A DNA stretch of 64,000 bases. It comes from an uncultured delta proteobacterium. Lineage in GTDB: Bacteria; Desulfobacterota; Binatia; UBA9968. The notes under the pieces are model-generated. The model was not told the origin of the DNA and searched no databases. It saw nothing but the letters and a program-made list of their open reading frames with translations. Shown piece after piece: positions 6,276-28,742 of this stretch. The stretch spans positions 96,001-160,000 of the forward strand of contig CAVSHR010000009.1 of NCBI GenBank assembly GCA_963727625.1, given 5' to 3'. Made by a program: the position numbers and the translations under genes. Numbering within the stretch: position 1 is the first letter of the stretch; every line of letters starts with the position of its first letter.

Positions 6276-6647
6276 TTGATAATTGGATTTAACGGTTGTA
6301 ATTCCCCTGACCGTGCGTGTATAAAATTGACCGCGCCAAGGCTCGACGAAGGTTACAAAAGGGTCGTGTTTAAATTTTCGATGCCGCTATTCATTATTGA
6401 GATTTGGAGCGGATTTAGGCCGTTTCTTATTAAGATCACCATTGATTTTCTCGTAACTGCGAGTTTTTGGATAGGGCTATACCTTTTTAAAATCATGGCA
6501 CATAATATGCCTATACCTGAGCTGGCTGGAAAATTAGTCGTTTACATTCATGCGACGGGAACTGTAGCTGCTGTAGCAATCTTTATGTGGTATTCGATAA
6601 CAGATATAATAGAAATCAAAACAACCAAAATATTATGCCTCGCTTAG
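6276..6647 (+). CDS. small membrane protein, unknown; real start probably GTG 6366 or ATG 6381
   Basis: low-GC ORF with two hydrophobic segments. Confidence 0.5.
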   Translation: MIIGFNGCNSPDRACIKLTAPRLDEGYKRVVFKFSMPLFIIEIWSGFRPFLIKITIDFLVTASFWIGLYLFKIMAHNMPIPELAGKLVVYIHATGTVAAVAIFMWYSITDIIEIKTTKILCLA

Positions 6648-7270: not shown

Positions 7271-7316
7271 TTTTTTCCGAATTAGAAAAACGGAGCTTAA
7301 CAGGTAGGCTAAACCG

Positions 7317-8018
7317 ATGGTCAATTTCGGAAAAAATACTTATCAGTACGAAATCGTTTACAAATTCGATTGTCTATCGATAGAATTCGTAAACGAACTT
7401 GCAAGGCATTTTGTTGGACCAAAAAAACGCTTCTCGATGATCTCAAAAGATGCGGGCAACAATCATACGATAATGTCTACAGGAGCCGGAACGGAAGTAT
7501 CTCCCTTGTTTCAACTCAGAATAGGGGCAGATAGACTAATTTTTTGGGGCGGCTGGTTTGTTTCGCTTGATCAATGGCATCAACACGTCAACCAATTTCT
7601 TCCGGAAATATCGCAGTTTGTTCGGAACATTCCAGTTGAATTTATAGGAAACTTGACCAGCCAATGTAATTTCGCAGTACCTTCGTCGCGACTTAGACGT
7701 GCGACAACCGTTCCTGAATTGGAGCCGGTTGTCAATTTCTACCAAAAGTTTGTTCCAAAAGAACTTCTAAAGCGGGGTAATTTAGTTATGGCTTTTGCCG
7801 ATGAGCAAGGTCGAGAAGTCTTGAGTTGGGGGGTTGGAGGCGGGGTGCCAGTTGCAGGCCATGAAAACATTGGGTTTACTTTCCGATGGAACACCTTTGA
7901 AGACCAATTAGATCTGAAGAGTGCTTTATTGTCGCATTTTTCGAGGTATGAACGGTTTCTGGAAGATTTCCAAAGAGGTTTTTTATCCCTGATTGTTGAC
8001 GAACATGTTCATAATTAA
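7317..8018 (+). CDS. hypothetical protein (possible distant TIGR04255-like)
   Basis: 233-aa low-GC ORF; segment FQLRIGADRLIF...W loosely recalls that family (tentative). Confidence 0.6.
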   Translation: MVNFGKNTYQYEIVYKFDCLSIEFVNELARHFVGPKKRFSMISKDAGNNHTIMSTGAGTEVSPLFQLRIGADRLIFWGGWFVSLDQWHQHVNQFLPEISQFVRNIPVEFIGNLTSQCNFAVPSSRLRRATTVPELEPVVNFYQKFVPKELLKRGNLVMAFADEQGREVLSWGVGGGVPVAGHENIGFTFRWNTFEDQLDLKSALLSHFSRYERFLEDFQRGFLSLIVDEHVHN

Positions 8019-8097
8019 TCTCATACACCCACCGTTGAAACCGTTTTTGATTTAAACTGAAGGCCTTTTCTTAACAGCACTAGGCAACAAACCCTCC

Positions 8098-8232
8098 TCA
8101 CCGCCCCATCGGTATCACCTTAGCCTTCTGTGTCTCGAGATACAGTTGCATTTTCTCACTGGCAGCCTTCAGATCGTCTTCACTGACAATGTGATACCGA
8201 TCAAAGACCGACCTTGTCCGATGCCCACTGAG
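8098..8232 (-). pseudogene. C-terminal stub of a tyrosine integrase
   Basis: LSGHRTRSVFDRYHIVSEDDL = box II GH...Y; cut off at the RAYT-like element end. Confidence 0.8.
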
Positions 8233-8941
8233 AGAGCAGAAAAGGAGAGCAGAAAAGGGGATAAGTCCAATTTTCTCTACCGCTCCTTGCGAGGTCGGCC
8301 CCGCAAGCGCAATGTGGACTTCAATCCTAAACGTTCCGCGATCCATGGTTGCCAACGTTCGTTCCCGAACGGACGACCTCTCTGAGCCGATAACCTGAGC
8401 GTTTCCAATTCTTGATCTTCGGCTGTCTCGTTTACCAAAGTGAGCCAGTCGGCGGGTCTGGGAATCGGCCATTCGGATAACACCAGTCCGGTTGTCTCCG
8501 CAGTTTTAGTAGCCCGCAAACCGAGACTCGACCATCGCCAATCTTCTGCTCGGTCTACTAATTTGGCTCTCAGTGGATTTTGCTCCACGTATCGGCAGAC
8601 CGAAAGAAAATGGTTGTCGTCCTGGACTGGGAAACTCTTATAGGTGCCTTGATAAAGGTGCCCGTTGCCGACACTATGCCGGTTTAAGTGCCAGCGTCGC
8701 ACATGGGTTGTGGTTAGCCGTTGGACAAACCTTCCTAATTCTCCATCTCGCATCGGCCACAGAACCAAGTGCCAGTGATTCGGCATAATGCAATAGGCCA
8801 AAATTCTAACCGATGTTGTTCTTGCTGTCTCAACGAGAATCCGCTCAAAAGCGTTGTAGTCCTGATTCTTTTCAAAGATCTGTGATCGTGCGTTGCCTCG
8901 ATTGAGTACGTGGAAGATGACATCGCCCGGGGCAACCCTAG

Positions 8942-10426
8942 CAGCCCGTGGTAGAAGTCCGATTTTTACAAAACGCATGGGATCGCGGCGAAGCGGTGAC
9001 TTGGGAGCGCAAATAGTCTCAGGTCGAGTCCTCGGCGCCGATGAGCGGTTAGTTGGTCGCGCAGTAGCACCCACAGAGTAAAACAGATAGCCAGTACGGC
9101 GGCAAAACGGCCCTGTAGACCGCGTGGCGTTCCAATTCCCGTCAACGTGCGCATCCACAGGCCCAGATTGCAGGCCGCTACGTGCACGAGTAGCCGTTTG
9201 AGAATATTGCCGTGCCCGCGCAGATGAGTCCGGCGCATGCCGCCGGTCTCGTAGAGATGCGCATTGGGTCGCTCTAACAACTCACCTCGTTGCCGCATCA
9301 ATAGCTGCCCACGCTCGCCTCGAATGCGCCGCCGATTGGCATACACCGCGTCACGCTCAGCCTGCTGACCCTTCCAGTGCTGCCGGCCGCGATCCGGTTC
9401 ACTGATGTAGGTGCGCAGTCCTAGGTTCTGCATATCGAGCACGGTTTGCTTACTGTGATAGCCCTTGTCGGTGACCACTTCCTTGCCTATCTTCACCTTG
9501 TCGTCGATGATCGCAGCCACCGCTTCTAATTGCTCGATTGCCTCAGGCAGCGTCGTCTGGATCGTGGTGGTGTCGCCTTGATCGGCTTCCTGCAGCGTGA
9601 CCGCCACGATGGCACCGGTCTCCAGGTCCACGGCATGCTCGGCTTTGTGCGCTAAATGGGTCCGTCCGTCCTTCATCTTGGCGATCCGTGCGTCGGGGTC
9701 ATGCGGATGTTCCCAGTCCTGGTTAGATCCTTTCTTCTTACGTTTGCGATCCAACTTCGCCAGATCGGCTCGCGTTGGGGTCTCAATGCCGGATTCTTCA
9801 GCCAGCTTGGTCAAAAACTCGTTATAGCTCTCCCCGGTGTCGCGGCGCACGATGCTGCGCAAGGCCGCGTTCGCTTCGAGCGTGGTAGCATCGATCGCCA
9901 GCGTTTTCCCTTTGATGAGTCCGGCGATGCCCAGACACTGAAGTACCCATGTGAACACCGTCCGATGGGTTTCCAAATCGATCAATCGCCGAGTCCGCGA
10001 TATCGTCGAATGATCCGGTGCACACTCGGTCAGCCCCAGCTCAAGGAACGATCGCACTCCCGAGGAGTCCGCCGCGCGCCACGCCATGGCGCGTTCAGAG
10101 TCCAGGCATTCGAAGTAGCCAAGTAATAGAAAACGGAAATATCGTCCAGGCGCCAGACTGGGCCGCCCCATCTTCTCGGCATAGAACGCCCGGCACTGCG
10201 CTTCGACAAACTCGTCGAACCCATGCTTGGCCAATAACCCGTTGAGCTTCTCGTAGAACGGGTGGCTCACAGACTTCGGCAGCTCGCTCACTCCCACCCA
10301 CATCGCTCTCTGCTCTTCGTGTTTTCGTTGTCCCATCGCCATGCAAAAAATTCTACACGATCTATCGTTCCTGTCGACTACTCTCCATCACTCTCCCACT
10401 TCATTCTCGACTTTCACCACGGGCTG
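8942..10426 (-). mobile_element. IS1182-like insertion sequence, 1485 bp
   Basis: 18-bp IRs with 16/18 match (CAGCCCGTGGTAGAAGTC / GACTTTCACCACGGGCTG); CTAG duplicated at 8938-8941 and 10427-10430. Confidence 0.88.
8966..10342 (-). CDS. DDE transposase (IS1182/IS5-like)
   Basis: GRPS, PDHSTISRTR, IDATTLEANA, TDKGY, LLERP motifs. Confidence 0.88.
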   Translation of the reverse strand: MAMGQRKHEEQRAMWVGVSELPKSVSHPFYEKLNGLLAKHGFDEFVEAQCRAFYAEKMGRPSLAPGRYFRFLLLGYFECLDSERAMAWRAADSSGVRSFLELGLTECAPDHSTISRTRRLIDLETHRTVFTWVLQCLGIAGLIKGKTLAIDATTLEANAALRSIVRRDTGESYNEFLTKLAEESGIETPTRADLAKLDRKRKKKGSNQDWEHPHDPDARIAKMKDGRTHLAHKAEHAVDLETGAIVAVTLQEADQGDTTTIQTTLPEAIEQLEAVAAIIDDKVKIGKEVVTDKGYHSKQTVLDMQNLGLRTYISEPDRGRQHWKGQQAERDAVYANRRRIRGERGQLLMRQRGELLERPNAHLYETGGMRRTHLRGHGNILKRLLVHVAACNLGLWMRTLTGIGTPRGLQGRFAAVLAICFTLWVLLRDQLTAHRRRGLDLRLFALPSHRFAAIPCVL

Positions 10427-10618: not shown

Positions 10619-13600
10619 CTAGATTTCTGGATCTCTGGAAACAAACCGACCGTATCTGAGCGCTAAGGTCGGGAGCACCAACAGATTCAGAGCCGTCGAA
10701 GTCACCAATCCGCCAAGAATCACTATCGCCATCGGGCCTTCGATCTCACGGCCAGGGGCGCCGCTGCCGATAGCCAACGGAAGCAAACCCAGGCCGGTAA
10801 CAAGCGCGGTCATGAGAATCGGGGCGAGCCGTTCAGAGGCACCGCGTATGGCTGCATCTATTCCCCAAAGCATTTCCTCGGAGGTGATCAAATGTTCATA
10901 GTGGGAGAGTAGCATGATGGAATTGCGCAGGGTGATACCGAACAGAGTGACGAAGCCGACCATTGATCCGAGCGAGAGTATTCCACCGGAGGCAAATACG
11001 GCCAGCACGCCGCCCAGCAGGGCAAAAGGCAAGTTGATGAGGACCAGGAAGAGATTACGTATATTGCCCACGACAATCGACAACAGCAAAACAATCCCAA
11101 GTCCCGCCAGCAGCGAGTGAACCAACAAATCTCGTCTGGATTGCGCTTGAGCTTCACTTGTACCGGTGAAATCAAGATAAACACCGGGAGGCAAAGAGAC
11201 GGCGGAAAGGATCTGCCGTTTTGCCTGAGCGACAAAGGAACTCACGCTGCGGCCCGCCACATTGCAAGTCACGGTTTGTACTCTTCTGGCCCCCTCGTGT
11301 AGAAGCGCATACCGGCCTGACATTTCATACACGTCGGCCAGCTGTTGCAGGCGCACGTATGTTCCATCGGGGTTGCGAAGCGGCAAAGCCGCCACATCAG
11401 CTATGCTTTTGCGCATCTGTGGATCAAGGATCACCGTTACGTCGGAAACTCGATTCCCTTCGTAGGTTTGACCTACCACATCTCCCTCATAGGCCGCGCG
11501 CACCACTTCGAGGGCATCAACCGGGTCAATACCCCAGCGAGCCAGATCCGCCTTGCGAAGCCGAATTACGAGTTGTGGCGCTCCAGGCGGAGATTGGATC
11601 TGGATGTCGGCGGCCCCTGGTATTTGAGCCAGTAACTTCGCAACGGTCTGAGCCGTGTTGTCTAAAATATCGAGATCATCGCCGAAGATATTAATGACGA
11701 CCGCAGACGTATAACCGGAGAGCGTTTCCTCAACCCGCTCGGTCAAGAAGGTGTTTACGGCAAAGGCCACGCCGACGAACCGCATGAGTATTTTACGGAT
11801 CTCCGACTGCGCCAGCTCGGACTCCCTTTCTCCTCTTAGCGGTTTGAGATCAACCTCAAACTCGCTGTCCTGAGTCCCCAGGATGTCATCGCCTTTTTCC
11901 GCCCTCCCCACGCGCTGGGCAACGGAGCGAACGTAAGGGAGTTTGAGCATTTCACTCGTGAGACGCCGTCCAAGCCGCAGCGATTCCTCCAGCGAGGTGC
12001 CGGGAGCCGCCGACATATGAATAACGAAGTGCCCTTCGTTGAGCTCCGGCAAGAATTCCCCACCGAAGAAGGGAAGCGTTGCCAGTCCTAGGACCGTCAA
12101 AAGCGCTATAATGCCTATTACAAATCGCGACCGACGTTCTATCCGAAGAAGCAGAGCGGAATAGCGCGCTTTCAGCCACCGGACAAGCGGAGGCGCGTCT
12201 TCTTGCATGTTTCGACGACCTAGGACAACAAAGCACAGGGCAGGGGTGACGGTGAGAGCGACGAGCAGAGATGCCAAAATGGCAAAAATGTAGGCAAGGC
12301 CCAATGGGGCAAACAGCCGGCCGGCGAGACCCGACAGGGTTAGGATCGGGATGAAAACCAACACCACCGCAAACGTGGCGTAGACTACTGCGCTGCGCAC
12401 CTCGACCGAAGCGTCAAGAACCACGCGAAAAACCGGTCGCGGAGTCTCCATCTGACGATTCTCACGTAGACGCCTCAGAATATTTTCTACGTCGATGACC
12501 GCATCATCGACCACTTCGCCAATTGCGATGGCCAGCCCGCCGAGAGTCATCGTGTTGAGACTGACACCTAACTGTTGCAGGATCTCTACCGAAGCGAGCA
12601 ATGACAAGGGAATGGCCGTGCAAGAGATGGCCGCCGTGCGGAAGTTGAACAAAAACAGAAACAGGACAATCACGACCAGCAGAGCTCCGATAAGCAAGGA
12701 CGACCGTATATTACTGATGGCAGTGTCGATAAAATTAGCGGGCCGGAACAGGCCCGGATATAACGCAACGTCCTGAGCGATCAGCCCGGCGCGAAGTTCC
12801 TCTAGAGCTTGTTCAACGCGCTCCGATACTTGAAGAGTGTTTGAACCGTACTGCGCTGAAATCATCAGAATGACGCCGGGGCGACCCATAATGGCGGCGG
12901 CGCCGATCGGCGGCGCCGGAGCTTCGACGACCCGGGCGACATCACCCAATGTGATAGCAGCACCGTCGTGATACCCGAGAACCGTGCTTGCGAGCTGATT
13001 TGAGGTGAGCGATTGTCCTTCGCTCCGCAGGACGATGCGCTGGTTCTCGGTATCGATGACGCCTGCCCCCCGAATCCCGGTGGCCTTGCGCGCCGCGCGT
13101 AAGACATCCTCGATCGCGAGGTTGTACTGAATCAGCCGATCCGGTTGCATTTGGATCTGTAGCTGTTTCACGTCGCTGCCGAATACGGCCACTTTAGCGA
13201 CCCCCGGAACGGCTAGAAGGCGCTGCTTCACCGTCCAGTCGGCGAGGCTCCTGAGCTCCATAAGCGAACGTGTTTCGGAGGTCAGGCCTACCGCCAAGAC
13301 CACGCTAGTGGACGACGTTAAGGGCGTCATGACCGGCGCGTCTATCCCTCCCGGTAATTGCCCCGAAACAGAAGCCAAGCGCTCTGCCACCATCTGGCGG
13401 TCAAGATAAATGTCGCTATTCGGACGAAAGGTGACCGTTACGACAGACAGCCCCTGAATCGAGCCGGATCGTAGCGATTCGACCCCCACCACGCCATTGA
13501 CGGCGTTTTCGATCGGTCGAGTAATCAGCACCTCGACCTGCTCGGGTGACAGACCCGGAGCCTCGGTTTGAATCACCGCCTGAGGCGGAGCAAACTCGGG

Positions 13601-13717
13601 GAAGACATCGTAGGTAGCCCGCGAAAGTGTATATAGACCATAGCCCAACCATGCGCATGCCAAGGCCATAACGACACCACGGAAGCGAAGCGAGAAGCGC
13701 ACGATTGCGGCGAGCAC
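10619..13717 (-). CDS. CusA/CzcA-family heavy-metal RND permease
   Basis: DVFPEF, APGLSPEQVE, GEVVDDAVIDVENI, ERLAPILMTAL; 1032 aa. Confidence 0.93.
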   Translation of the reverse strand: MLAAIVRFSLRFRGVVMALACAWLGYGLYTLSRATYDVFPEFAPPQAVIQTEAPGLSPEQVEVLITRPIENAVNGVVGVESLRSGSIQGLSVVTVTFRPNSDIYLDRQMVAERLASVSGQLPGGIDAPVMTPLTSSTSVVLAVGLTSETRSLMELRSLADWTVKQRLLAVPGVAKVAVFGSDVKQLQIQMQPDRLIQYNLAIEDVLRAARKATGIRGAGVIDTENQRIVLRSEGQSLTSNQLASTVLGYHDGAAITLGDVARVVEAPAPPIGAAAIMGRPGVILMISAQYGSNTLQVSERVEQALEELRAGLIAQDVALYPGLFRPANFIDTAISNIRSSLLIGALLVVIVLFLFLFNFRTAAISCTAIPLSLLASVEILQQLGVSLNTMTLGGLAIAIGEVVDDAVIDVENILRRLRENRQMETPRPVFRVVLDASVEVRSAVVYATFAVVLVFIPILTLSGLAGRLFAPLGLAYIFAILASLLVALTVTPALCFVVLGRRNMQEDAPPLVRWLKARYSALLLRIERRSRFVIGIIALLTVLGLATLPFFGGEFLPELNEGHFVIHMSAAPGTSLEESLRLGRRLTSEMLKLPYVRSVAQRVGRAEKGDDILGTQDSEFEVDLKPLRGERESELAQSEIRKILMRFVGVAFAVNTFLTERVEETLSGYTSAVVINIFGDDLDILDNTAQTVAKLLAQIPGAADIQIQSPPGAPQLVIRLRKADLARWGIDPVDALEVVRAAYEGDVVGQTYEGNRVSDVTVILDPQMRKSIADVAALPLRNPDGTYVRLQQLADVYEMSGRYALLHEGARRVQTVTCNVAGRSVSSFVAQAKRQILSAVSLPPGVYLDFTGTSEAQAQSRRDLLVHSLLAGLGIVLLLSIVVGNIRNLFLVLINLPFALLGGVLAVFASGGILSLGSMVGFVTLFGITLRNSIMLLSHYEHLITSEEMLWGIDAAIRGASERLAPILMTALVTGLGLLPLAIGSGAPGREIEGPMAIVILGGLVTSTALNLLVLPTLALRYGRFVSRDPEI

Positions 13718-13732
13718 AGCGATTCTTTCCTC

Positions 13733-14779
13733 TCACTCGCCGACATGAATCTGCGATCGCAGTTCTTCCGAGAGAAGTAACTGCGCGCCGGTAGTCACGA
13801 TTTGATCATTAGGGGAGAGATCCGGTTTAACAACCCACCCCTGTTTAACCACAGCCTCGGTTGAAATCTCGCGCCGAACGAATCGGTCGGAGTCTTTCTT
13901 CACATAAACCCACCTCTTTCCCTGCCACCGGACAACGGCTGCGCGAGGCACGATGATGCCGGTCGTCGTCGAGCCGCTCGGCAAATAAGCAAGCACGTTC
14001 ATTCCGGGAAAAAGGCCTGTTGCCCGAGCTGGGGCAATATAGAAAAGGCTCATTCCTTGAATGCGTGGGTCCGTGCTCGGTGCGGGTGAGACTAAGCTAG
14101 CCGATGTAAGGTTTCCCTCTGGGCTCTGGACCCGCACGTTCCGCGGCGTGGAAGAGAGGGCTGAGCCCGGCGGAAGCGTAATCCGCAGTAAGACATCTTG
14201 TCTTTGCATCAAACGTTCAAATTCCTTGGAGTCGTTCAAAAGCCACTGTGCTAGGACGCTGCCCCATCGTTGTCGCACAGTGCTCTCTACGGCATTAAGG
14301 GCAATATCTGCAGCACGCGCGCTTGCGTCATCCGACCGCCAAGCGGCTTCCGCGGACTGGAAAACCTTGACGGAAATATTCCGGTTTTCCTGCAGGGCTT
14401 TTACGCGTTCATATTCTTTGCGCGAAGCCTCAAGCCTTGCTCGTGCCTTTTCCACCTCCGCATGGGCCGCGGCAACGCTGTTGCGAAGATCAACGAGGGG
14501 CTGAAGCTCTATGACCGTTCCGTAGCCTCTGAGCTCTTCCTGATAAGAGACGGCTTTGACTGGAGCGACCTCGATTCCACTCATTTTCTGGGTGGCTCGA
14601 TCTACATTGATGATGCTTTCACCCTTTTCTGTAGATACTCGCGGCGGCGCCTTGACGGGGCGCTCCCGCTCCCGTTCCATAGCCGCCTCTTTACGACTTT
14701 CGACAAAAGCCCAGATCAGAAGCGATCCAATGCCGAGAACAACGATGATCGCCAAAATTATTTTTAGCCTAGGCCTCAT
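13733..14779 (-). CDS. RND periplasmic adaptor (MFP)
   Basis: N-terminal TM anchor, coiled hairpin, PGM and VP-AAVV motifs; between TolC and RND genes. Confidence 0.88.
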   Translation of the reverse strand: MRPRLKIILAIIVVLGIGSLLIWAFVESRKEAAMERERERPVKAPPRVSTEKGESIINVDRATQKMSGIEVAPVKAVSYQEELRGYGTVIELQPLVDLRNSVAAAHAEVEKARARLEASRKEYERVKALQENRNISVKVFQSAEAAWRSDDASARAADIALNAVESTVRQRWGSVLAQWLLNDSKEFERLMQRQDVLLRITLPPGSALSSTPRNVRVQSPEGNLTSASLVSPAPSTDPRIQGMSLFYIAPARATGLFPGMNVLAYLPSGSTTTGIIVPRAAVVRWQGKRWVYVKKDSDRFVRREISTEAVVKQGWVVKPDLSPNDQIVTTGAQLLLSEELRSQIHVGE

Positions 14780-16200
14780 TGGTCTTTCCCCTCGCTCGGT
14801 CGAGGATCTTTCTCAATGATATTTGTGACCGCTTGCGTCGGGTTGAGCGGTTGATGCACCGCATCCTCAAGCGAGCCGATGGTCCGCTGAACTATGGTGA
14901 GGGTGTTGAAGCGGGAAAGTTCGGCGGCGGCGACCTCCAGATCAGCGCTGCGCAGGACCAGCCGATCCACTTGCCCGACGTCGAACTGCGCCTGTACGGA
15001 GTGCTGCTGATTTTTACGGGCGTCCACGAGTCGATCGGCCGTTTCCAGAGCTTGCCGTGCCGCGCGGTATCCGGCCAAAGCCCGGTCGATCGCGCCCATC
15101 ACTTGAGCTTGCAAGGCGATAAAGCGGGCTGCTGCTTCGTGGCGGCGCGCTTCCGCCTCCGCAATGGGTCCTTGATTTTGATTGAAGACCGGCAGCGTCA
15201 ACGATACGCCCAGTGACCATTTATTGTCACCTTGATCCCACGAATAACCCGGACCGAGATGAATGTCGGGATATTGTCTGGCTGTCTCCAGCTGTAAAGC
15301 CGATTGCCTGGCAGCGTAATCCGAAAGTGCGCTCAAAATATCAGGTCGGTTAAGTAACGCTCGACGTTGTACTCTTTCGGAAGGAAGGTCCACCGATGTC
15401 CGAGCAAAAAAGCCAAAAGAGAGATCGATTCCGTCAAGCGCGGCCACTGATAATCCGAGTGCATCGGCGAGCCGTACCCGCGCCTCGGCGCTTTGTTTTT
15501 GCGCATCGCGCAGAGAAAGCTGAGTGCGAGCAAGAGCGATACGCTCCTGGGTAAGATCAGGCTGGGATGCTTCGCCAAGCTCAAGCCGCTGTTCGAGAAG
15601 TTTAACAACCTCCTGTTGAACCGTTTCCTGTTTCAATAAAAAGGTTTCAGTCTGACGCGACGCGTAAAGCTCGACTAGGCGCGCTCGCAAACGGCTTCGC
15701 ACTTGCCACGCCACAGTGGAGATATTTAGACGGGCCGCTTCGAAAAGGTGCTTCGCTTGATCGATGCGATATCCTCGCTTACCAGCGGTTTCTATCGGGA
15801 TGTCGAGGGTCGGGGTCACGATCCAAGGCGAAATCCCACCTGTGGCGCTAAAGTTGTATTCGGGGAGGAAGCTAACATTCGGATTGGGATGTTCACCAGC
15901 GGTGATCACGATGGCCTCGGCAATGCCCCACTTGGCACGCACAACGTCCAGGTCCGGATGGTAATAAAATGCCGCGAGCCTGAGCATCTGAAAATCCCAG
16001 ATCTTAGGCGGCCAAGACGCTAATTCATGGCCAAGGTTGGTCCTGAGAAATTCTTTTAAACCCGCGGTATCGAGCGTGCGGGCTTTAAACTCTGCGGCTG
16101 TCTGAGTCGGAGCAAGTGGCCTCGGCCGGAATGTCGCACACCCGTCAAGGAGGGCGGCGATGGTTATAAACGCCAGAGTGCGACTAATCCGCTTCTCCAT
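14776..16200 (-). CDS. TolC-family outer membrane factor (lipoprotein)
   Basis: lipobox LLDGC, ETAGKR, YPDIHLG, LPVFNQNQGPI. Confidence 0.9.
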   Translation of the reverse strand: MEKRISRTLAFITIAALLDGCATFRPRPLAPTQTAAEFKARTLDTAGLKEFLRTNLGHELASWPPKIWDFQMLRLAAFYYHPDLDVVRAKWGIAEAIVITAGEHPNPNVSFLPEYNFSATGGISPWIVTPTLDIPIETAGKRGYRIDQAKHLFEAARLNISTVAWQVRSRLRARLVELYASRQTETFLLKQETVQQEVVKLLEQRLELGEASQPDLTQERIALARTQLSLRDAQKQSAEARVRLADALGLSVAALDGIDLSFGFFARTSVDLPSERVQRRALLNRPDILSALSDYAARQSALQLETARQYPDIHLGPGYSWDQGDNKWSLGVSLTLPVFNQNQGPIAEAEARRHEAAARFIALQAQVMGAIDRALAGYRAARQALETADRLVDARKNQQHSVQAQFDVGQVDRLVLRSADLEVAAAELSRFNTLTIVQRTIGSLEDAVHQPLNPTQAVTNIIEKDPRPSEGKDQ

Positions 16201-16498
16201 GAATATAAAACCTCCTCCAATATCCCCAACACTGAGCTAGGGACTCAGCTGTGCATTGCCACTGGTTGAGGGTCTCGCTGTGCATTAGAATTCCTTCGGG
16301 TTTTTAAACAAACTGATTGCTGTCCAAGCGAATTTTGGTGAGCAATAAGAATAGCCAAGGCTGAAAAATAGTCTAATCCCTGGAAACATCAATTCAATCG
16401 CAATATTAACGACTCATCTCGCCATTGCATCGCTTCGGCCCAGACATTTGCCGGAACGTCCCGTTAGGCGATAGTTTTTACTTTTCTGAGTACGTGCC

Positions 16499-16530
16499 TT
16501 GACTCTGTACCTAGGTACGGAGTGTACATT
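16499..16530 (+). promoter_or_regulatory. MerR-type promoter/operator
   Basis: TTGACT-20 bp-TACATT with dyad CTGTAC-CTAG-GTACGG in the long spacer. Confidence 0.85.
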
Positions 16531-16550
16531 ACCTTTTAGAGGGCAATGAA

Positions 16551-17027
16551 ATGCATGGCTTGACCATAGGGCAGCTCGCCAAAGAGAGCAACGTGCACGT
16601 TGAAACGATCCGTTATTACGAGCGCCGAGGATTAATTTCCAAGCCGCCGCGATCGGTCTCAAATTACAGGATGTATTCCTCCGAGAATCTACGCCGCTTA
16701 AAATTTATCAAGCATGCACAGGGACTCGGCTTCTCCCTAAAAGAAATTAAGGAGATTCTGTCTTTGCGTGCAATCCCGCGCGCTAGGTGTGCCGATGTTC
16801 AAAAATACACGACTCGCAAAATCGAAGAACTTCAAGAGAGAATTCATTCGCTAACACGCATGCGCAGAAGCCTAGAAAAGCTCCTGCGTGAGTGCTCCGG
16901 AGACCTGCCGGCGACAGAGTGTCCGATACTTGAGTCGATGGAATCTGAAAACCGAAAAAACCGATCAATTAAATTCAAACGAAAAGGAGCGGTTTATGAG
17001 CAAAAAAAGGGAAATCGAAATTTATAG
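16551..17027 (+). CDS. merR: MerR-family metal-responsive regulator
   Basis: TIGQLA...VETIRYYERRGL HTH; three-Cys pattern ARC...ECSGDLPATECPIL. Confidence 0.85.
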   Translation: MHGLTIGQLAKESNVHVETIRYYERRGLISKPPRSVSNYRMYSSENLRRLKFIKHAQGLGFSLKEIKEILSLRAIPRARCADVQKYTTRKIEELQERIHSLTRMRRSLEKLLRECSGDLPATECPILESMESENRKNRSIKFKRKGAVYEQKKGNRNL

Positions 17028-17265
17028 TGCGGGCTGCCCGGCATGTGAGGACGCGATCAAACTGGTAAACGGCATCGCCTGTGACTCTTGCGAGGTCACG
17101 GTACTCGATATGCAGGATCGGGCGGTAGCCCAGAGAGCGAAGACTCTTGGGATCCAAAGCATACCGGCAGTCGTGATCGATGGAAAGCTCGCCGCCTGCT
17201 GCAAAGGACGCGGTATCAGTGAATCCGCGCTGCGCAGCGAGGGGATCGGTCAACCGTTGCCTTAG
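16996..17265 (+). CDS. small thioredoxin-fold protein
   Basis: AGGAG RBS, ATG 16996; GCPAC, IPAVVIDGKL, CC pair. Confidence 0.8.
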   Translation: MSKKREIEIYSAGCPACEDAIKLVNGIACDSCEVTVLDMQDRAVAQRAKTLGIQSIPAVVIDGKLAACCKGRGISESALRSEGIGQPLP

Positions 17266-17278
17266 CATCTAGAAATTT

Positions 17279-17623
17279 ATGCAATTTGAAACCGTTAAGG
17301 CCGGTGTTATAGGCATGTCGGCCGCCATCGTGGCGTCTCTTTGTTGTCTATTGCCTTTGATTGTTGTGCTCCTGGGTTTTGGAAGCGGCGCTTTCATGAT
17401 GGTGACCATGCAATACCGCGCGTTATTCCTGCCCATGGGCGTGCTCGGCGTGTCGTTGGGTTATTATTTGTATTTTCAGAAAAGACGCCGATGTGCCAGC
17501 GCCGGCTGCACCTTCGTGGGCGGGACATTCAATTTGGTTCTTCTTTCCTTGGCCACAGTCATGGTCGCGCTGGCGCTTGGATTAGATTTTTTTCGCAATT
17601 ATCGTCTGAGATGTTGCAGATGA
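17279..17623 (+). CDS. merT: MerT-like membrane metal transporter
   Basis: ASLCCLLP in TM1, YR-LF, cytoplasmic C-x4-C loop, 3 TM; possible frameshift in the T-run near 17587-17593. Confidence 0.75.
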   Translation: MQFETVKAGVIGMSAAIVASLCCLLPLIVVLLGFGSGAFMMVTMQYRALFLPMGVLGVSLGYYLYFQKRRRCASAGCTFVGGTFNLVLLSLATVMVALALGLDFFRNYRLRCCR

Positions 17624-17648
17624 TCATGTAGGCCGGGAGGTCCTCGTT

Positions 17649-17972
17649 ATGAAAGAAAAGCGTATCCTGATCCGTCTTTTTCTTGTTCTTCTCCCTCTTT
17701 GTTGGCTAACCGTCTTTTCGCTGTACACTGAGCCGCTGCATGGGGCTGAACTTAATCAAGTCAACCTACAAATCGAAGGAATGACCTGAGGGGCATGTCC
17801 CGTCACCGTGCGGGCAGCCCTGGAAGGGCTAAAGGGAGTGAAAAAGGCACAAGTGAGTTTCGCCGAAAAAACCGCCACTGTTACCTATGATCCTCAGGCG
17901 ATTGATATCCCGGCAATGGTTCAGGCCGTGAAGAGGGCCGGATTTTTCGCGCGCACGAGCGCGACGAAATGA
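17649..17972 (+). CDS. merP: MerP-like periplasmic HMA protein with in-frame TGA (putative selenocysteine, GMT-U-GAC)
   Basis: GGGAGG RBS; signal peptide; LQIEGMT*GACPVTVRAALEGLKGVKKAQVSF...VTYDP; TGA at 17787-17789 is codon 47; hairpin follows. Confidence 0.8.
17790..17820 (+). promoter_or_regulatory. candidate bacterial SECIS hairpin
   Basis: GGGC-A-TG(T)CCCG-TCACCGTG-CGGGCA-GCCC directly 3' of the TGA. Confidence 0.5.
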
Positions 17973-18002
17973 CTCCTGAAAACGGATCCAGAGGAGGGAT
18001 AT

Positions 18003-18338
18003 ATGAATGACGATCACGGGTCCCGGCAAGGGAACAAGTGTTTTAAGACAGGCGTGTTCGGGACAATTATCGCAGCCATTTGTTGCGCCACCCCTGTCCT
18101 GGCGGTTGCGTTGGCTTCTATAGGCTTGGCGGTCATAGTGCCGAAACTTGATTACGTTCTCCTTCCTGCGCTGCTGATTTTCCTGCTTCTGGCTCTTTAC
18201 GGATTGCGAAAGGGAAGACATGACGGAGACCACCCGAAATGGAGATTGAATCCCCGAACTGTTGTTCAACAGCCGGTCCCGAAACGGTCGAGGACCATTG
18301 CCCGCGTTGTGCCGGCAAAGGAAAGACCGTTTCGCTGA
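18003..18338 (+). CDS. merF: MerF-like transporter with extended C-terminus
   Basis: GTIIAAICCATPVL...LDYVLLPALLIF matches the MerF pattern; GAGGAGG RBS. Confidence 0.8.
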   Translation: MNDDHGSRQGNKCFKTGVFGTIIAAICCATPVLAVALASIGLAVIVPKLDYVLLPALLIFLLLALYGLRKGRHDGDHPKWRLNPRTVVQQPVPKRSRTIARVVPAKERPFR

Positions 18339-18703
18339 TAACTGTTGGGTCAATGGCGAAAACTTCGGTAGAGGCCTGCAAACTCGCCCGGTCATCATAC
18401 CAGCTCTGCCACAATCCCGATTGCTCGGTCGTGTATTTTGCCCCTGGAATTACAATACAAAAAACAGAGCTTCGGGTTCCCGTCAACTTCAAGGAAAAAA
18501 ACTACGACGGCCCTGTCTGTTATTGTTTCAATCACACCGTGGCGAGCATCAGAGCGGAAATTCAATCCACCGGTCGTTCCACAGTCCAAACGGCGATCAC
18601 CAAGGAAATACAAGCGGGGCGTTGCGCCTGCGAGGTCAAGAACCCGGCTGGCTCATGTTGCTTGGGGGATATCACACGGGCTGTGCGAGCTGTGGTTGTT
18701 TAG
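18239..18703 (+). CDS. Cys-rich CopZ N-terminal-like Zn/[2Fe-2S] (BFD-like) protein
   Basis: CPRC, CHNPDCSVVYF, VCYCF, CACEVKNPAGSCC. Confidence 0.82.
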   Translation: MEIESPNCCSTAGPETVEDHCPRCAGKGKTVSLITVGSMAKTSVEACKLARSSYQLCHNPDCSVVYFAPGITIQKTELRVPVNFKEKNYDGPVCYCFNHTVASIRAEIQSTGRSTVQTAITKEIQAGRCACEVKNPAGSCCLGDITRAVRAVVV

Positions 18704-18862: not shown

Positions 18863-18926
18863 CGCGCCGGACTCAAAATCCGGTAGGGGAAATCCTGTGC
18901 GGGTTCAAGTCCCGCCTCCGGCACCA
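18863..18926 (+). repeat. attR: duplicated 3' part of tRNA-Leu
   Basis: 63/64 identical to 5407-5470; preceded by an AT-rich tract. Confidence 0.93.
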
Positions 18927-24417: not shown

Positions 24418-25071
24418 CTAATGAGTGGTGATGCCGGTAATCTTGATGCTGCCGTGTTTGGACTTGTACTTGCGGTTGAGGGAAATGATGACGCCGGTAA
24501 GTCCTTCGATGACATAGGCGTTGCTGGCAGGCCCAGCGTCATAAGCCGTGGCGCCGATGCGCTGAATAATCTCCATCACTTTCTGCTTGGCTTCGGCGTT
24601 ATCGCCGCAAACCAGCACGTCGCCGAGCGGCGCATCGACGTCGCCCAAATCAACGGCAGAGATATTATGCAGCGCGCCGATCACCGGAGCTTCGTCGCCG
24701 ATGATCTGCTGCGCCTCCTGTAGTGCGGAGCCCGCCGCCGGCACGAACGGCTTTACTTTATTGAGCGGCACCACCGTGTTGATGACGATTTTACCCGCCA
24801 GTTGGCCTTTGAGATCGGTTACCATTGGCGCGTGACCTTCGTACGGCACTGCGATTACCACGAAATCGGCGTCCTTGACCGCCTCTCGATTGGTCCTGCC
24901 GATCATTTCGCCGAAGCGCAGTTTGGGCTGCAAGGTTGCGACGGCGTTCTTGGCCTTCTCCGCGTCACGTGAGCCGATGATAATTTTTACTCCAGGGGCG
25001 CTGAGCCTGAGCGCCAAGGCGCTGCCTAAATTGCCCGTGCCGCCGACGATCGCTACACTGAAATTTTCCAT
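24418..25071 (-). CDS. npdG: F420-dependent NADP oxidoreductase
   Basis: GGTGNLG, GSRDAEKA, VIAVPY; end of the cof operon. Confidence 0.85.
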   Translation of the reverse strand: MENFSVAIVGGTGNLGSALALRLSAPGVKIIIGSRDAEKAKNAVATLQPKLRFGEMIGRTNREAVKDADFVVIAVPYEGHAPMVTDLKGQLAGKIVINTVVPLNKVKPFVPAAGSALQEAQQIIGDEAPVIGALHNISAVDLGDVDAPLGDVLVCGDNAEAKQKVMEIIQRIGATAYDAGPASNAYVIEGLTGVIISLNRKYKSKHGSIKITGITTH

Positions 25072-25087
25072 ATTTTTTTATCCGGTG

Positions 25088-25840
25088 CTAACGAAAAAGA
25101 TCCTCTGTCTCGGGACGCAGGAGCTCTTTCACCGAACCTTCCTCCTTTTTGTCAATTTCATAGCCGCGCACGACGACGACTGGAACACCGTCGCGTTTAC
25201 CCATGACCAATTCCGCCGCAGCGGCAATTTCATCGGCGATCGCCGCTACCGCAGCCTTGAGTCGATAGCCGTAACGGTCGTTCAATCCTCTTTCGTCTTT
25301 GATCGCACCCATACCGGCAATGCCGACGGCGACGTCCACCGTGCCAAGACGCCAAGTCCGGCCGAAGCTGTCGCTGATAATCACAGCGGGTGATTTACCA
25401 GTGCAATTGGCGATGGTATCGCGAATCGCGCGCGCCGAACCATCCGGGTCGATCGGCAGCAAAGCGACTCGGCGCAACCCAATGTTGGATTGATCCACGC
25501 CGGCATTGGCGCAGACAAATCCATGGTGCGTTTCGACGATCAGAGCCCGGCCGCCGGTGCGAATCACTCTACGGCTTTCGCCGAGGATGACCTCGACCAG
25601 TTCCGGCTCTTTATCCAACTGTTCGGCCAACTCACGCGCCCGCTCCGACGGCGTTACGTCATCGAGACAGACCATACGTCCTTCGCTTTTGGAAACAATT
25701 TTCTGGGCGACCACTAAAACATCATCGTCGGCCAGCGCAAGCTCCTGGCGCGCGCAGGCGTCGCAGATCAGCGCGCCGATGGAATCACCGGCGTTGATTT
25801 CACCGATGCCTTCCACGCCGATCAACTCAAGCCGCTTCAT
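25088..25840 (-). CDS. cofE: F420-0:L-glutamate ligase
   Basis: AQKIVSKSEG, CANAGVDQSN, DSFGR, DLFR. Confidence 0.92.
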   Translation of the reverse strand: MKRLELIGVEGIGEINAGDSIGALICDACARQELALADDDVLVVAQKIVSKSEGRMVCLDDVTPSERARELAEQLDKEPELVEVILGESRRVIRTGGRALIVETHHGFVCANAGVDQSNIGLRRVALLPIDPDGSARAIRDTIANCTGKSPAVIISDSFGRTWRLGTVDVAVGIAGMGAIKDERGLNDRYGYRLKAAVAAIADEIAAAAELVMGKRDGVPVVVVRGYEIDKKEEGSVKELLRPETEDLFR

Positions 25841-26526
25841 AGGCTCTCGGAGCGCCTATGGCCTCGCGCCACTTGTTCCGCCATCAACCGCCGCGCCACC
25901 CGCGTCGCTTCGCCATCGGCGAGATCATAGGTCAAAAACCGTTCGAGATCTTTCGGTTCGTCTATATCGAGCGCGATATGCTCGTTCTCGAAGCAACGGA
26001 CCGGCAATCCCTGGGCGCGCACCTGAGCCAGGTGAAAATTGAAACTGTCGTGGCCGAAGCGCAGCTCAATGATGTCCGGCGGCGCCAGCAGCAGCGCATT
26101 GGTACCCAAGCGGTCATGGGACGGCACGAGCATAGCAAAGGGCGCCGATGCATCATCGGGAACTTGCGCCATAACCACTTCCAGATCTGCGGCACGCACC
26201 AACGGCATGTCGCCGGGGATGATCATTACGCCCTCGCACCCCGCCCGCTTCAATTCCAAACGGGCGAAATCCACCGCGCCGGTCTCGCCGGTTTCCGCGC
26301 TCTCCCGAATCACTTCAGCGCCGGCGGTTAAAGCCATGCTGGCGACCTTGTCGTCGCCGGTCACAACGAAAGTTGCGGCGATGCCCCGCACCATCCTTGC
26401 CTGGGTCAAAACATCGTGGAACATCGCTTTAGCCAAAAGTTCGCGCGCGGCGCAGCTCAGGATCGGGCTCAAGCGCTGCTTCGCGTTGCGGAAGCCTTTA
26501 ACGGGAATCAATGCGACAACATTCAT
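25837..26526 (-). CDS. cofC: 2-phospho-L-lactate/PEP guanylyltransferase
   Basis: IPVKGFRNAKQRL, GTNALL, FGHDSF, DIDEPKDL. Confidence 0.92.
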   Translation of the reverse strand: MNVVALIPVKGFRNAKQRLSPILSCAARELLAKAMFHDVLTQARMVRGIAATFVVTGDDKVASMALTAGAEVIRESAETGETGAVDFARLELKRAGCEGVMIIPGDMPLVRAADLEVVMAQVPDDASAPFAMLVPSHDRLGTNALLLAPPDIIELRFGHDSFNFHLAQVRAQGLPVRCFENEHIALDIDEPKDLERFLTYDLADGEATRVARRLMAEQVARGHRRSESL

Positions 26527-26553
26527 GGGCAGTCCGAAAACAGATTCTCTAGA

Positions 26554-27480
26554 CTATTTTTCGCCTGCGGCCAAGACCTGCCGCGCCAAGCGCTGTTTGT
26601 CGACGCCGGTCGGCATGCGAATACCCGTGCAAACCGGGTTGATTTTCAGATCTCTGATCTGCGGCGCCGACTCGGCGTCTTCATCCGCGATCAGCAGCGT
26701 ATCGAGAAAATCGCCGTAACCTCGCGCCACGCCCAGCGCCGAAGCTTCGAAGCCGCACGCGATCATCAATTTGTGCGCCGGGCCGGAGATCGCCGCCGTC
26801 CCGATAATCGGGCTTACTCCGACCACTGGTACACTCGCTTCCTGCAACGCCGCCCGGATTCCCGGCACCGCGAGAATCGGGCCGATGCTGGTGATCGGAT
26901 TGCTCGGGCAAATGATAATTGCGTCGGCGCGCTGGATCGCCTCGAGGACGCCCGGGCCGGGCCGGCTTTGCTCAGCGCCGAGAAATCGAACCGCCTGCAC
27001 CTCCGGCGACCAGCGCTGTTTGACAAAGAACTCTTGAAAGGAAATTTCTCCTTGCGGCGTCTCGACGCTGGTTTCGACTCGCTCATCCGACATCGGCAAA
27101 ATTTGCGACCGGACGGCGAGTGCGCGGCGAATCTGTTCGCTGATTTCGGAAAGCTTTCGGCCTTCTTTCAACAAGCGGGTTCGAGTGATATGCGTCGCCA
27201 GATCTTTGTCACCGAGATTAAACCACGGATCGTCACCCAAGAGACGCAGTTGCTCCAACACCGCGAAGGTATCGCCCTTGATTCCCCATCCTTTTTCGGT
27301 ATCGCTCAGGCCGGCGAGTGTGTACGTAATCGTGTCGATGTCGGGTGAAATATGCAGGCCGTGAAAGACGCAATCGTCGCCGGTGTTGCAGACAATCATC
27401 AACTCCGACGGATCGACGACCGCGGCGAGCCCTTCGACCAGCTTGGCGCCGCCGGTGCCGCCGGTGAGCGCGACGATCAT
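26554..27480 (-). CDS. cofD: 2-phospho-L-lactate transferase
   Basis: MIVALTGGTGGAK, NTGDD, WFNLGDKD, PSNPITSIGPIL. Confidence 0.93.
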   Translation of the reverse strand: MIVALTGGTGGAKLVEGLAAVVDPSELMIVCNTGDDCVFHGLHISPDIDTITYTLAGLSDTEKGWGIKGDTFAVLEQLRLLGDDPWFNLGDKDLATHITRTRLLKEGRKLSEISEQIRRALAVRSQILPMSDERVETSVETPQGEISFQEFFVKQRWSPEVQAVRFLGAEQSRPGPGVLEAIQRADAIIICPSNPITSIGPILAVPGIRAALQEASVPVVGVSPIIGTAAISGPAHKLMIACGFEASALGVARGYGDFLDTLLIADEDAESAPQIRDLKINPVCTGIRMPTGVDKQRLARQVLAAGEK

Positions 27481-28742
27481 CAGCGCAACTCCGACGGCGA
27501 AGGAGTGATGGAGTGTTGGAGTCCTGGTAAATTCCGTAGCGGTCCGTTGTCCTTCACCAAGCCGTCTTCGCCGCAAAGGCGTTCGACGTATGCAATGAGC
27601 GGCCGGGGAAGATATTTGGCGCCTTGTTGAATGTATTCAGGATAGATCGGCAAGCGCGCTCTCAGCTCGAAACCGGCTTGCTTGCTTTTTTCTTGCAGCA
27701 ATTGCAGCGCTGGCCAGGGCGCCTCGGGATTGATAAAGTCCGGCGTCAGCGGCGACACACCGCCCCAGTCGTTGATCCCCGCTTCGAGATAAAGCTCGTA
27801 GCCGTCGGGCGTCAAATTGGGCGGTGCCTGGATATTCATCTCACCGCCGAAAATCAACCGCGCCAGCGCGATGGTCTTGCGCATATCGTCACGCGTCGCA
27901 TCGGGATGCTCGCGCATGGGAATCGTCGGCTTGGCGCGAAAGTTCTGCACGATCACTTCCTGAATGTGCCCGTAGCGCTCATGCAGCTCGCGAATGGCGA
28001 AGAGCGAGTCGATCCGCTCCTGCCAGTTCTCGCCGATGCCGATGAGGATCCCGGTGGTGAAAGGAATGCGCAGCTTGCCGGCTAGCTCCAAAGTGCGCAG
28101 GCGCGCCGCCGGTCTTTTATCTGGCGCGTTGTCGTGCGCGCCGCCGGGAAGCAGCAAGCGTTCGCTGACGCTTTCGAGCATCAACCCCATGCTCGGATTG
28201 ACTTCCTTGAGGCGTCGCAGATCCCCTTGGCCCATCACGCCGGGATTCGAGTGCGGCAACAGACCGGTTTCGTTTAAAACCGTGCGGCAAGCTTCGTAAA
28301 GGTAATCGAGCGTGCGCTGGTGGCCGTGCTCGGCCAGAAACTGTTTCATCTCCGGATAGATCGCTTCGGGTTTGTCGCCGAGACTGAACAACACTTCCGT
28401 GCAGCCGAGCAGCTTGCCCTGCCGCACGACTTCCAGCACTTCATCGAGCGTCATCGTCTTCGCATTCCGCTCGTCCGGTGCCTTGCGAAACGTGCAATAC
28501 CCGCAAAAATCCCGGCAAAGATTGGTGAGCGGGACGAAAACTTTCGGCGAAAACGTGACCACATGACCTTTGTGCCGATCGCGCACCTCAGCCGCCGAAG
28601 TTAAGAGAGCTCGCAGTTCATCGTCTTGTGCAGCGACCAGTCCGAGCGCTTCCGAGCGGCCGAGCCACTTGCCCCGCAGGTAATCAGTTAACACGTGCGA
28701 TGTCACATTTGGTTGAATATCGGATCGGCGCCCACGATTCAA
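27480..28742 (-). CDS. cofG: FO synthase subunit CofG (radical SAM); start may be GTG 28706
   Basis: PLTNLCRDFCGYCTF, LPHSNPG, FTTGILIGIGE, GINDWGGVSP. Confidence 0.92.
   Translation of the reverse strand: MNRGRRSDIQPNVTSHVLTDYLRGKWLGRSEALGLVAAQDDELRALLTSAAEVRDRHKGHVVTFSPKVFVPLTNLCRDFCGYCTFRKAPDERNAKTMTLDEVLEVVRQGKLLGCTEVLFSLGDKPEAIYPEMKQFLAEHGHQRTLDYLYEACRTVLNETGLLPHSNPGVMGQGDLRRLKEVNPSMGLMLESVSERLLLPGGAHDNAPDKRPAARLRTLELAGKLRIPFTTGILIGIGENWQERIDSLFAIRELHERYGHIQEVIVQNFRAKPTIPMREHPDATRDDMRKTIALARLIFGGEMNIQAPPNLTPDGYELYLEAGINDWGGVSPLTPDFINPEAPWPALQLLQEKSKQAGFELRARLPIYPEYIQQGAKYLPRPLIAYVERLCGEDGLVKDNGPLRNLPGLQHSITPSPSELR

Follow-up and report, generated by a model that had tools for sequence, protein, structure and literature searches.

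Gene content and promoter of the operon

We analysed a 64-kb stretch of DNA (hereafter the window) from an uncultured delta proteobacterium of the Binatia (GenBank assembly GCA_963727625.1, contig CAVSHR010000009.1, positions 96,001 to 160,000), in which an operon at 16499–18703 combines a MerR-type regulator and mer-type importers with a protein related to the N-terminal domain of archaeal CopZ, here called CopZN. A six-gene, co-oriented operon under a MerR-type promoter had been proposed in a first-pass annotation made from the sequence alone, and our analysis confirmed it, with every open reading frame (ORF) lying where it had been placed. The features of the operon are as follows.

16499–18703, + strand: operon of six tightly packed, co-oriented genes under one promoter, in the order merR, thioredoxin-fold gene, MerT-like gene, merP, merF, CopZN
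16551–17027, + strand: merR, first gene of the operon, with helix-turn-helix and DNA-binding domains (Pfam MerR_1, 5.7e-22)
16996–17265, + strand: thioredoxin-fold gene, 89 aa (Pfam Thioredoxin_3, 3.5e-8)
17279–17623, + strand: gene for a MerT-like membrane protein (PF02411, 21.9 bits against a cut-off of 32.9)
17649–17972, + strand: merP, periplasmic protein with a signal peptide and an HMA domain (HMA, 3.9e-16)
17790–17829, + strand: candidate selenocysteine insertion sequence (SECIS) hairpins, directly 3' of the merP UGA
18003–18338, + strand: merF (NF033565, 79.4 bits against a cut-off of 50)
18239–18703, + strand: CopZN, 154 aa (NF047645, 117.8 bits against a cut-off of 100; zf_CopZ, 1.1e-16)

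The promoter (16499–16530, + strand) consists of a -35 element TTGACT (16499–16504) and a -10 element TACATT (16525–16530), separated by a 20-nt spacer that holds the dyad CTGTACCTAGGTACGG (16505–16520; CTGTAC-N4-GTACGG), which we take to resemble the Tn501 operator. The dyad occurs only once in the window, where 0.05 matches would be expected by chance. Three plasmid modules of the MerR-CopZN type, from Stenotrophomonas, Cohnella and Peribacillus, carry this combination of -35 box, dyad, spacer and -10 region in front of merR; the annotation of merR there is Hg(II)-responsive or merR1, and a CopZN homologue is the next gene in each. In Gram-positive mer operons, according to the accessible part of PMC5027573, the promoter spacer is 20 bp and merR is co-transcribed as the first gene.

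The regulator has its closest solved homologue in the Hg-responsive MerR of Bacillus (4UA1, E 4.1e-29), followed by CadR (2.7e-24), Tn501 MerR (6.7e-23) and CueR (3.2e-22). Its residues Cys80, Cys115 and Cys124 align with the three cysteines of 4UA1, and their spacing of 35 and 9 residues is that of Cys82, Cys117 and Cys126, the Hg ligands of Tn501 MerR (PMC5027573, part available). On sequence grounds, MerR and its operator are thus of the Hg(II) class.

CopZN and its fusions to Mer-type importers

CopZN appears to be a stand-alone zinc-ribbon and [2Fe-2S]-type domain with an N-terminal Cys-Cys (CC) arm, and it falls in the family NF047645, 'CopZ_Nterm_CC, putative iron-sulfur cluster-binding metallochaperone'. 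A 22-member CopZN profile matched a single solved structure (2HU9, E 1.5e-14), which is that of the N-terminal domain of CopZ from Archaeoglobus fulgidus and was also the sole Foldseek match of the CopZN model at E <= 0.001. All eight CopZN cysteines that align with the Zn and [2Fe-2S] sites of 2HU9 are conserved, and C7/C8, C21, C24, C57, C62, C94, C96, C131 and C140/141 are the conserved positions in the family alignment with 2HU9; the division of the CopZ cysteines between Zn and the cluster reportedly goes back to Sazinsky 2007. An N-terminal CC was present in 50 of the 75 short CopZN forms in which a sequence pattern located the ribbon, a pattern that failed on 42 of 150 proteins.

An exhaustive profile search yielded 1,697 representative clusters at E <= 0.001, of which the best 150 were examined for architecture; 39 of these 150 were long forms (at least 230 aa), and their domains, assigned by Pfam, were distributed as listed here. 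A word-indexed search for longer forms had returned a single match, which we regard as a sensitivity miss.

CopZN-MerT-HMA: 16 of 39
CopZN-MerT: 10 of 39
MerT (two helices)-CopZN: 4 of 39
CopZN-MerC: 1 of 39
HMA-CopZN: 1 of 39
CopZN-MerB: 1 of 39
No partner domain: 6 of 39, two of these with sub-threshold MerT/HMA

Because 31 of the 39 long forms, about a fifth of the best 150, are fused to MerT or MerC and none of the 39 carries a MerA-type domain, CopZN is best read as a cytoplasmic acceptor of Mer-type importers. CopZN sits on the side of MerT that is cytoplasmic by the established MerT topology, in agreement with the MerTP fusion model NF033556. In one fusion (P0269), a two-helix MerF-like part is followed by a CC motif and then by the CopZN ribbon; the CC stands straight after the second transmembrane (TM) segment, in the place of the cytoplasmic CC of canonical MerF, and the protein reads as the merF–CopZN gene pair of the window in a single chain. 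Comparable tails begin the MerA proteins that lack NmerA (the N-terminal HMA domain of MerA) and are encoded directly after merF on alphaproteobacterial plasmids (L022:4224, L026:3270 and L024:3269): two of the three distinct cases start with M-S-D-C-C and one with M-T-D-C-R, and this short Cys-bearing tail resembles the start of CopZN as well as the motif at the C-terminal end of canonical MerF. The N-terminal 100 residues of the CopZN-MerB fusion (P0331) were considered as a member of the thioredoxin-like family of the window and rejected (BLASTP E = 2.1; Pfam DUF2703 only, 0.055).

Recurrence of the operon without an adjacent merA

The first-pass annotation had found no mercuric reductase before attR, the right-hand repeat of the island described below, and this holds for the whole 64 kb: tblastn with two MerA and two MerB queries gave no homologue in the window (best E = 0.14; 0.92 for the two MerA proteins alone), and no Pyr_redox family appeared in ORF scans of the window. 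We then compared 18 CopZN neighbourhoods, namely the window, seven genome loci (L001–L007, with flanks of up to 8 kb, in species-representative genomes: Binatia, 'Deltaproteobacteria' and Udaeobacter metagenome-assembled genomes) and ten plasmid contexts (flanks of 5–6 kb) chosen among the 20 that were listed out of 34 matching plasmids. The following layouts were found beside that of the window.

[ArsR]-MerT-like-MerP-MerF-CopZN: L001, L004
MerP-MerF-CopZN: L002
MerF-CopZN: L003, L005, L006
MerR-CopZN: plasmids of five species (two Deinococcus, Stenotrophomonas, Cohnella, Peribacillus)
MerR-CopZN-MerB-MerE-like-TlpA-CcdA-TlpA-flavoprotein: Deinococcus wulumuqiensis plasmid (L020:5535–10607)
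ArsR-P-type ATPase-CopZN: Enterococcus and Paenibacillus plasmids
YnfA-CopZN: Alicyclobacillus plasmid
Trx-MerR-MerF-CopZN-methyltransferase: Stanieria plasmid

A true merA was present in one of the 18 neighbourhoods within the 5–8 kb flanks. This gene, in L004 (TIGR02053, 490 bits against 454, with the C-terminal Cys pair), lies directly upstream of arsR, merT-like, merP, merF and CopZN on the same strand. In D. wulumuqiensis (L020) merB directly follows CopZN; the flavoprotein disulfide reductase annotated 'lpdA' in that operon was tried as a MerA and rejected (397.7 against a cut-off of 454.45), and the Cys pair at the C-terminus of MerA is missing from it, so that the operon has merB and no true merA. 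The first-pass annotation had reasoned that the window operon would be a deletion derivative if homologous operons nearly always included merA; the opposite was found, and the recurrence of the merA-less layout argues that the operon is not a deletion accident. Where its upstream side is visible, CopZN is directly preceded by merF in all six such genome loci, as it is in the window and in Stanieria. The canonical merF operons compared were different, with merA in all four distinct ones and directly after merF in three of the four.

As a separate observation, class I S-adenosylmethionine methyltransferases lie beside or near CopZN in four loci (L009:5458–6090, L002:4708–5334, L005:2701–3408 and L007:4572–6059), that of L005 being ArsM-like with 190 bits, under the cut-off of 263.

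Importers of the operon

The PF02411 score of the first importer is below the cut-off, so we call it MerT-like only. It carries a CC in the first TM segment, a C-x4-C in the loop and a C-terminal CC, and is 62–64% identical to the proteins encoded near CopZN in L001 and L004. The MerT-like gene of L002 (L002:3154–3720) has an in-frame TGA immediately after a Cys in its first helix, corresponding to a Cys–selenocysteine pair, and the C-terminal periplasmic tail of its product is CusF-like by eye.

MerF has two TM segments with a CC in the first, and lacks the cytoplasmic C-terminal Cys pair that the canonical MerF proteins of L024 and L026 possess. Its ORF overlaps the CopZN gene by 100 nt in a different frame, and the C-terminal 36–39 residues have no counterpart in the aligned relatives. 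In five of six relatives MerF ends in a Cys codon followed by TGA (L001:7975, L003:1152, L004:7968, L005:1873 and L006:4972); the window MerF has neither that terminal Cys nor that stop. A MerF-CopZN fusion by read-through of this TGA was considered and rejected, as the frames match in L003 and L004 and not in L001, L005 and L006, a relation that is not conserved. Prediction of a complex between CopZN (with Zn and 2Fe-2S) and MerF residues 1–80 gave a score of 0.00 and a mark of 0.32, which speaks neither for nor against binding.

A probable selenocysteine in MerP

The merP gene contains an in-frame TGA (17787–17789) at the first Cys of the GMTCxxC motif, which reads GMT-U-GAC with selenocysteine (Sec, U) at this codon. 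Scored with Cys substituted for U, the protein reaches 93.9 bits for NF041115, 'UxxU metal-binding (seleno)protein' (cut-off 95), and it lies 21 bits below the TIGR02052 cut-off. The TGA occupies the same codon in all four merP homologues (window, L001, L002 and L004), with the frame kept on both sides; the ligand motif is UxxC in the window, L002 and L004, and UxxU in L001, where UGA stands at both ligand positions. The first hairpin after the UGA is no better than shuffled sequences in a single-sequence fold (z = -0.47), and the second (17817–17829) is kept through compensatory changes in L002 within a set of four sequences. An Rfam scan of the window returned tRNA only and no SECIS or other family; selA, selB, selD and tRNA-Sec were absent from the 64 kb, where the only tRNA is that for Leu and the ORF scan showed no sel family. 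The conserved position of the codon indicates that the merP TGA most likely encodes selenocysteine.

AhpC/redoxin genes whose active-site codons include an in-frame TGA also occur near CopZN (L007:379–969, L001:8590–8832 and L006:5882–6187). They probably encode Sec redoxins; that of L007, the one of the three translated through, reads W-U-P-Y-C.

The thioredoxin-fold protein

The second gene encodes a thioredoxin-fold protein with six cysteines in CPAC, CDSC and CC motifs, whose best match among structures in the PDB is 2K8S (E 3e-6). All three motifs are kept in 119 of 120 homologues among the matches listed. The protein is 43% identical (E 1e-25) to the Trx of the Stanieria plasmid cluster and 57.5% identical to that of a Burkholderia contaminans plasmid cluster, and the gene is absent from all seven genome loci within the flanks read. 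Six thioredoxin-like and six CopZN matches in metagenomes came from contigs of equal sizes (122552, 35865, 6406, 6386, 3993 and 2643), which hints, indirectly, that the two genes may stay linked in closer relatives; homologues of both at 70–90% identity are found in many metagenome clusters.

Proposed function

Considering the gene content, the class of MerR and its operator, the recurrence without an adjacent merA and the fusions of CopZN to Mer transporters, we lean towards reading the operon as a Hg(II)-inducible import-and-capture relay in which CopZN is the cytoplasmic acceptor and disposal falls to a MerA encoded elsewhere or to the thiol pool. For the metal, the direction of transfer, the parts played by the CC arm and the thioredoxin-fold protein, and the end point, we infer the following course. 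Hg(II) would be sensed by MerR, which would switch on its own operon; periplasmic MerP would take the metal, its first ligand being probably selenocysteine, and would pass it on to the MerT-like protein and MerF, whose vicinal Cys pairs would receive it. CopZN would then take the metal at the cytoplasmic face, where its flexible N-terminal CC arm may supply the cytoplasmic Cys pair that is absent from the window MerF, and the six-Cys thioredoxin-fold protein may keep the thiols of the relay reduced or share the metal load. The operon would end at capture, with final disposal outside it, most likely by MerA elsewhere in the genome (as in L004) or by the thiol pool of the cell. A helper or acceptor role is favoured because L004 pairs the module with merA. 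The first-pass annotation had suggested that the thioredoxin and FeS proteins possibly replace MerA; the position of the L004 module, immediately after a true merA, would suit a helper role as much as such a replacement.

Several observations weigh against this proposal. From what is established about constructs with merT and merP only, import without disposal should be harmful, so a capture-only operon would have to bind the metal very tightly or rely on a partner encoded elsewhere. The MerT-like protein lies far under the Pfam and NCBIfam cut-offs for its family, and the regulator is 8.7 bits below that of its best NCBIfam match (TIGR02051, 142.2 bits against 150.85). The CC arm is common and not universal, being degraded in L002, L003 and L006, and the AlphaFold model of CopZN is of moderate quality (mean pLDDT 62.5, low over the cluster region). 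Several CopZN and thioredoxin-like neighbourhoods have a copper or cadmium flavour, with ArsR and a P-type ATPase, multicopper oxidases, SCO1 or a CsoR-type repressor. Finally, the only characterised relative of CopZN is a copper protein (2HU9; PMC7558416, part available).

Alternative explanations

The operon could instead be a self-contained, MerA-independent detoxification system in which the [2Fe-2S] cluster of CopZN, re-reduced by the thioredoxin-fold protein or by a host ferredoxin, turns Hg(II) into volatile Hg(0). It would then be a complete resistance determinant, an iron-sulfur reductase replacing the flavoenzyme, which we consider unlikely. The survey is in line with such a system, since 17 of the 18 CopZN neighbourhoods are without a true merA and many lie on plasmids or islands, on which one would expect self-sufficient units; two-gene MerR-CopZN modules occur on plasmids of five species, CopZN right after merF takes the place of merA in canonical merF operons, and all cysteines aligned with the cluster and Zn sites of 2HU9 are conserved. 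The homologous archaeal domain mediates the reduction of Cu(II), according to the accessible part of PMC7558416, which cites Sazinsky 2007, and low-potential ferredoxins are raised as candidate MerA-independent reductants in the available part of Christakis et al. (PMC8261052). However, the reduction of Hg(II) to Hg(0) takes two electrons whereas a single [2Fe-2S] cluster gives one, the operon encodes no electron donor, and the L004 module has a true merA next to it. Exposed Fe-S clusters are, moreover, themselves targets of Hg(II), which weighs against a reductase of this kind.

A relay for Hg(II) also has to be set against one for another soft metal (Cu(I), Ag, Au or Cd), in which the mer names would reflect family resemblance only and CopZN, as in Archaeoglobus, would prepare copper for chaperones or exporters in cooperation with the neighbouring resistance-nodulation-division (RND) pump. 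The only solved relative of CopZN does belong to a copper chaperone, and the divergent neighbour of the operon in the window is a CusA/CzcA-type pump. Elsewhere, ArsR and a P-type ATPase precede CopZN in the Enterococcus and Paenibacillus plasmids, copper genes lie near CopZN in Stanieria, Peribacillus, L001 and L002, Hymenobacter thioredoxin-like homologues stand beside a CsoR-type repressor and a P-type ATPase, the Stanieria regulator is without the Hg-type Cys spacing, and the tail of the L002 MerT-like protein, viewed by eye, recalls CusF. Nevertheless, the window MerR shows the Hg-type arrangement of three cysteines, with the Bacillus Hg-MerR as its closest solved homologue, and 31 of the 39 fusions are with Mer-type importers and not with copper exporters. 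The first-pass annotation had left the metal as Hg or one of Cu, Ag, Au and Cd; Hg has gained support and the others are disfavoured, because of the three-Cys MerR, the operator shared with merR genes annotated as Hg(II)-responsive, the merA next to the L004 module, and the merB neighbour in L020 together with the CopZN-MerB fusion. We therefore regard a relay for another metal as quite unlikely and retain Hg(II) import and capture, with CopZN as the acceptor, as the preferred function.

The island that carries the operon

The operon is the last cargo of a 13.4-kb island between tRNA-Leu repeats, which bears out the attR that had been placed at the island end. The island features outside the operon that were used in the argument are given here.

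5385–5470, + strand: tRNA-Leu(CAA), whose 3' 64 nt (5407–5470) form attL
10619–16200, - strand: RND efflux genes on the same island, divergent from the operon (CusA/CzcA-type pump, adaptor, outer-membrane factor)
18863–18926, + strand: attR, a 64-nt copy of the 3' part of tRNA-Leu(CAA)

The two repeats are identical at 63 of 64 nt (98%) and lie 13,456 nt apart. The island holds two transposase genes (IS200-like, 8277–9158; DDE, 8966–10342), and a Pfam-type ORF scan found no integrase family on it, only an integrase-like C-terminal tail in ORF 8098–8472 (- strand), the end motif of which resembles by eye the C-terminus of a tyrosine integrase and which abuts the IS200-like and DDE transposase genes. 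Excision of the island is probably no longer possible.

The operon might accordingly be thought a decaying remnant on an immobilised and eroding island, its merA lost and its remaining genes no longer under selection, given the two transposase genes, the integrase-like ORF surviving by eye as a C-terminal fragment only, the loss from merF of the stop and terminal Cys seen in five of six relatives with its run of 100 nt into CopZN, and the TGA that interrupts merP under the standard code; yet all six frames are intact apart from that TGA, four of the six genes have ribosome-binding sites recognisable by eye, the TGA is at the same codon in four of four homologues, the merA-less layout recurs across phyla, and the closely related thioredoxin-like and CopZN homologues of many metagenome clusters are an apparently linked pair, all of which makes decay very unlikely.

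The RND pump scores 689.5 bits for TIGR00914, under the cut-off of 701. Its gene (10619–13717, - strand) encodes the fourth-helix motif A-I-G-x3-D-D-A-x3-V-E-N, which we take to lie between the motifs of the monovalent and divalent heavy-metal RND classes. In the intergenic region upstream of the divergent RND outer-membrane gene, at 16225–16290, two copies of the ten-base word GCTGTGCATT stand about 30 nt from each other and may be a regulator site for the pump. A low-GC stretch at 6000–8100 (42–44% against about 58% elsewhere) holds ORFs 6276–6647, 6587–7270 and 7317–8018, none with a Pfam or PADLOC family, and PADLOC gave no match for the unassigned ORFs of the island.

Outside the island, the window contains a coenzyme F420 cluster (24418–28742, - strand) with npdG, cofE, cofC, cofD and cofG, all above the NCBIfam cut-offs, and at 39319–43791 (+ strand) a gene for a 1211-aa coiled-coil SMC-like protein (weak matches only) followed by one for a single-domain KaiC-like ATPase, in a region of very strong AT skew (0.32–0.35).

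Comparison with known systems

The nearest likeness is to narrow-spectrum mer operons (Tn501/Tn21; Bacillus RC607/Tn MERI1), which share the three-Cys Hg-type MerR and a dyad inside an over-long spacer, and whose MerP, MerT and MerF importers the window proteins resemble; the Bacillus RC607/Tn MERI1 type further shares merR as the first co-transcribed gene and the 20-nt spacer (PMC5027573, part available). Unlike these operons, that of the window has no merA, merB or merD, and adds the thioredoxin-fold gene and CopZN, a probable Sec in MerP and a divergent MerT under the family cut-offs. With A. fulgidus CopZ (2HU9) it shares a homologous domain (E 1.5e-14) in which the eight aligned cysteines are kept, whereas CopZN lacks the fused HMA/CopZ domain (zf_CopZ only), has an added N-terminal CC arm, and stands in the context of a mer-type importer under a Hg-type MerR and not of a copper export pathway.

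The window CopZN and the four plasmid homologues tested score above the cut-off of NF047645, which, with its Sec sister NF045877 (the Csac_0668 family), is the family closest to it; NF047645 is curated and uncharacterised, with a name that does not point to a partner, metal or pathway. Our system also resembles MerTP fusions and NF045683, 'MerT/CopZ fusion-like heavy metal transport selenoprotein', in which HMA is chained to an importer and Sec stands at metal ligands. The parts are separate genes in the window, however, and the 16 CopZN-MerT-HMA representatives add a cytoplasmic module outside the description of those families.

NmerA takes Hg(II) from the Cys pair of the importer in the cytoplasm, and the proposed role of CopZN as a cytoplasmic Hg(II) acceptor from that pair would be alike, although CopZN has an unrelated fold, is a stand-alone protein and has a probable Fe-S cluster. 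On Burkholderia contaminans plasmid pB1701, a Trx-MerR-MerT-MerP-GDCCVxC (seleno)protein cluster (L012:5001–6609) contains the same Trx family and no merA in the flanks read, and carries a 76-aa GDCCVxC-domain protein (NF041374) in place of merF and CopZN; judged from its genes, this represents another type of mer-like operon devoid of merA, one that finishes with a different small Cys-rich protein.

All parts of the operon can be assigned to curated families, and reviews and a preprint already list HMA, MerT and CopZ-family proteins in Sec form (PMC13188914, PMC9312934 and the Haft preprint 10.1101/2022.07.06.499078, each as far as its text was available). No publication describing CopZ-N-type proteins within a mer-like operon, or their fusion with MerT, turned up in a search limited to bioRxiv and open-licence PMC papers.

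Significance

Resistance to mercury is usually identified with merA, and the genes counted in environmental surveys of mercury cycling are merA, merB and hgcAB. The operon represents a recurrent alternative layout, in which a Hg-type MerR, Mer importers and a Cys-rich Fe-S protein occur with no reductase, and it bears on how cells without MerA handle Hg(II), a question raised by Christakis et al. (PMC8261052, part available). It also adds a case in which selenocysteine, here probable, takes the place of a metal-binding cysteine in a periplasmic metal carrier. The CopZN fusions to Mer-type importers (31 of the best 150 among 1,697 clusters) give a testable hypothesis for an uncharacterised family. 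We think it improbable that CopZN marks a widespread MerA-independent route of Hg detoxification, in which an Fe-S protein, often fused to MerT or MerTP, would receive Hg(II) and then reduce it or lock it away while a thioredoxin-fold partner and Sec ligands tune the relay; if such a route were real, surveys based on merA only would underestimate mercury handling in soils, sediments and uncultivated lineages.

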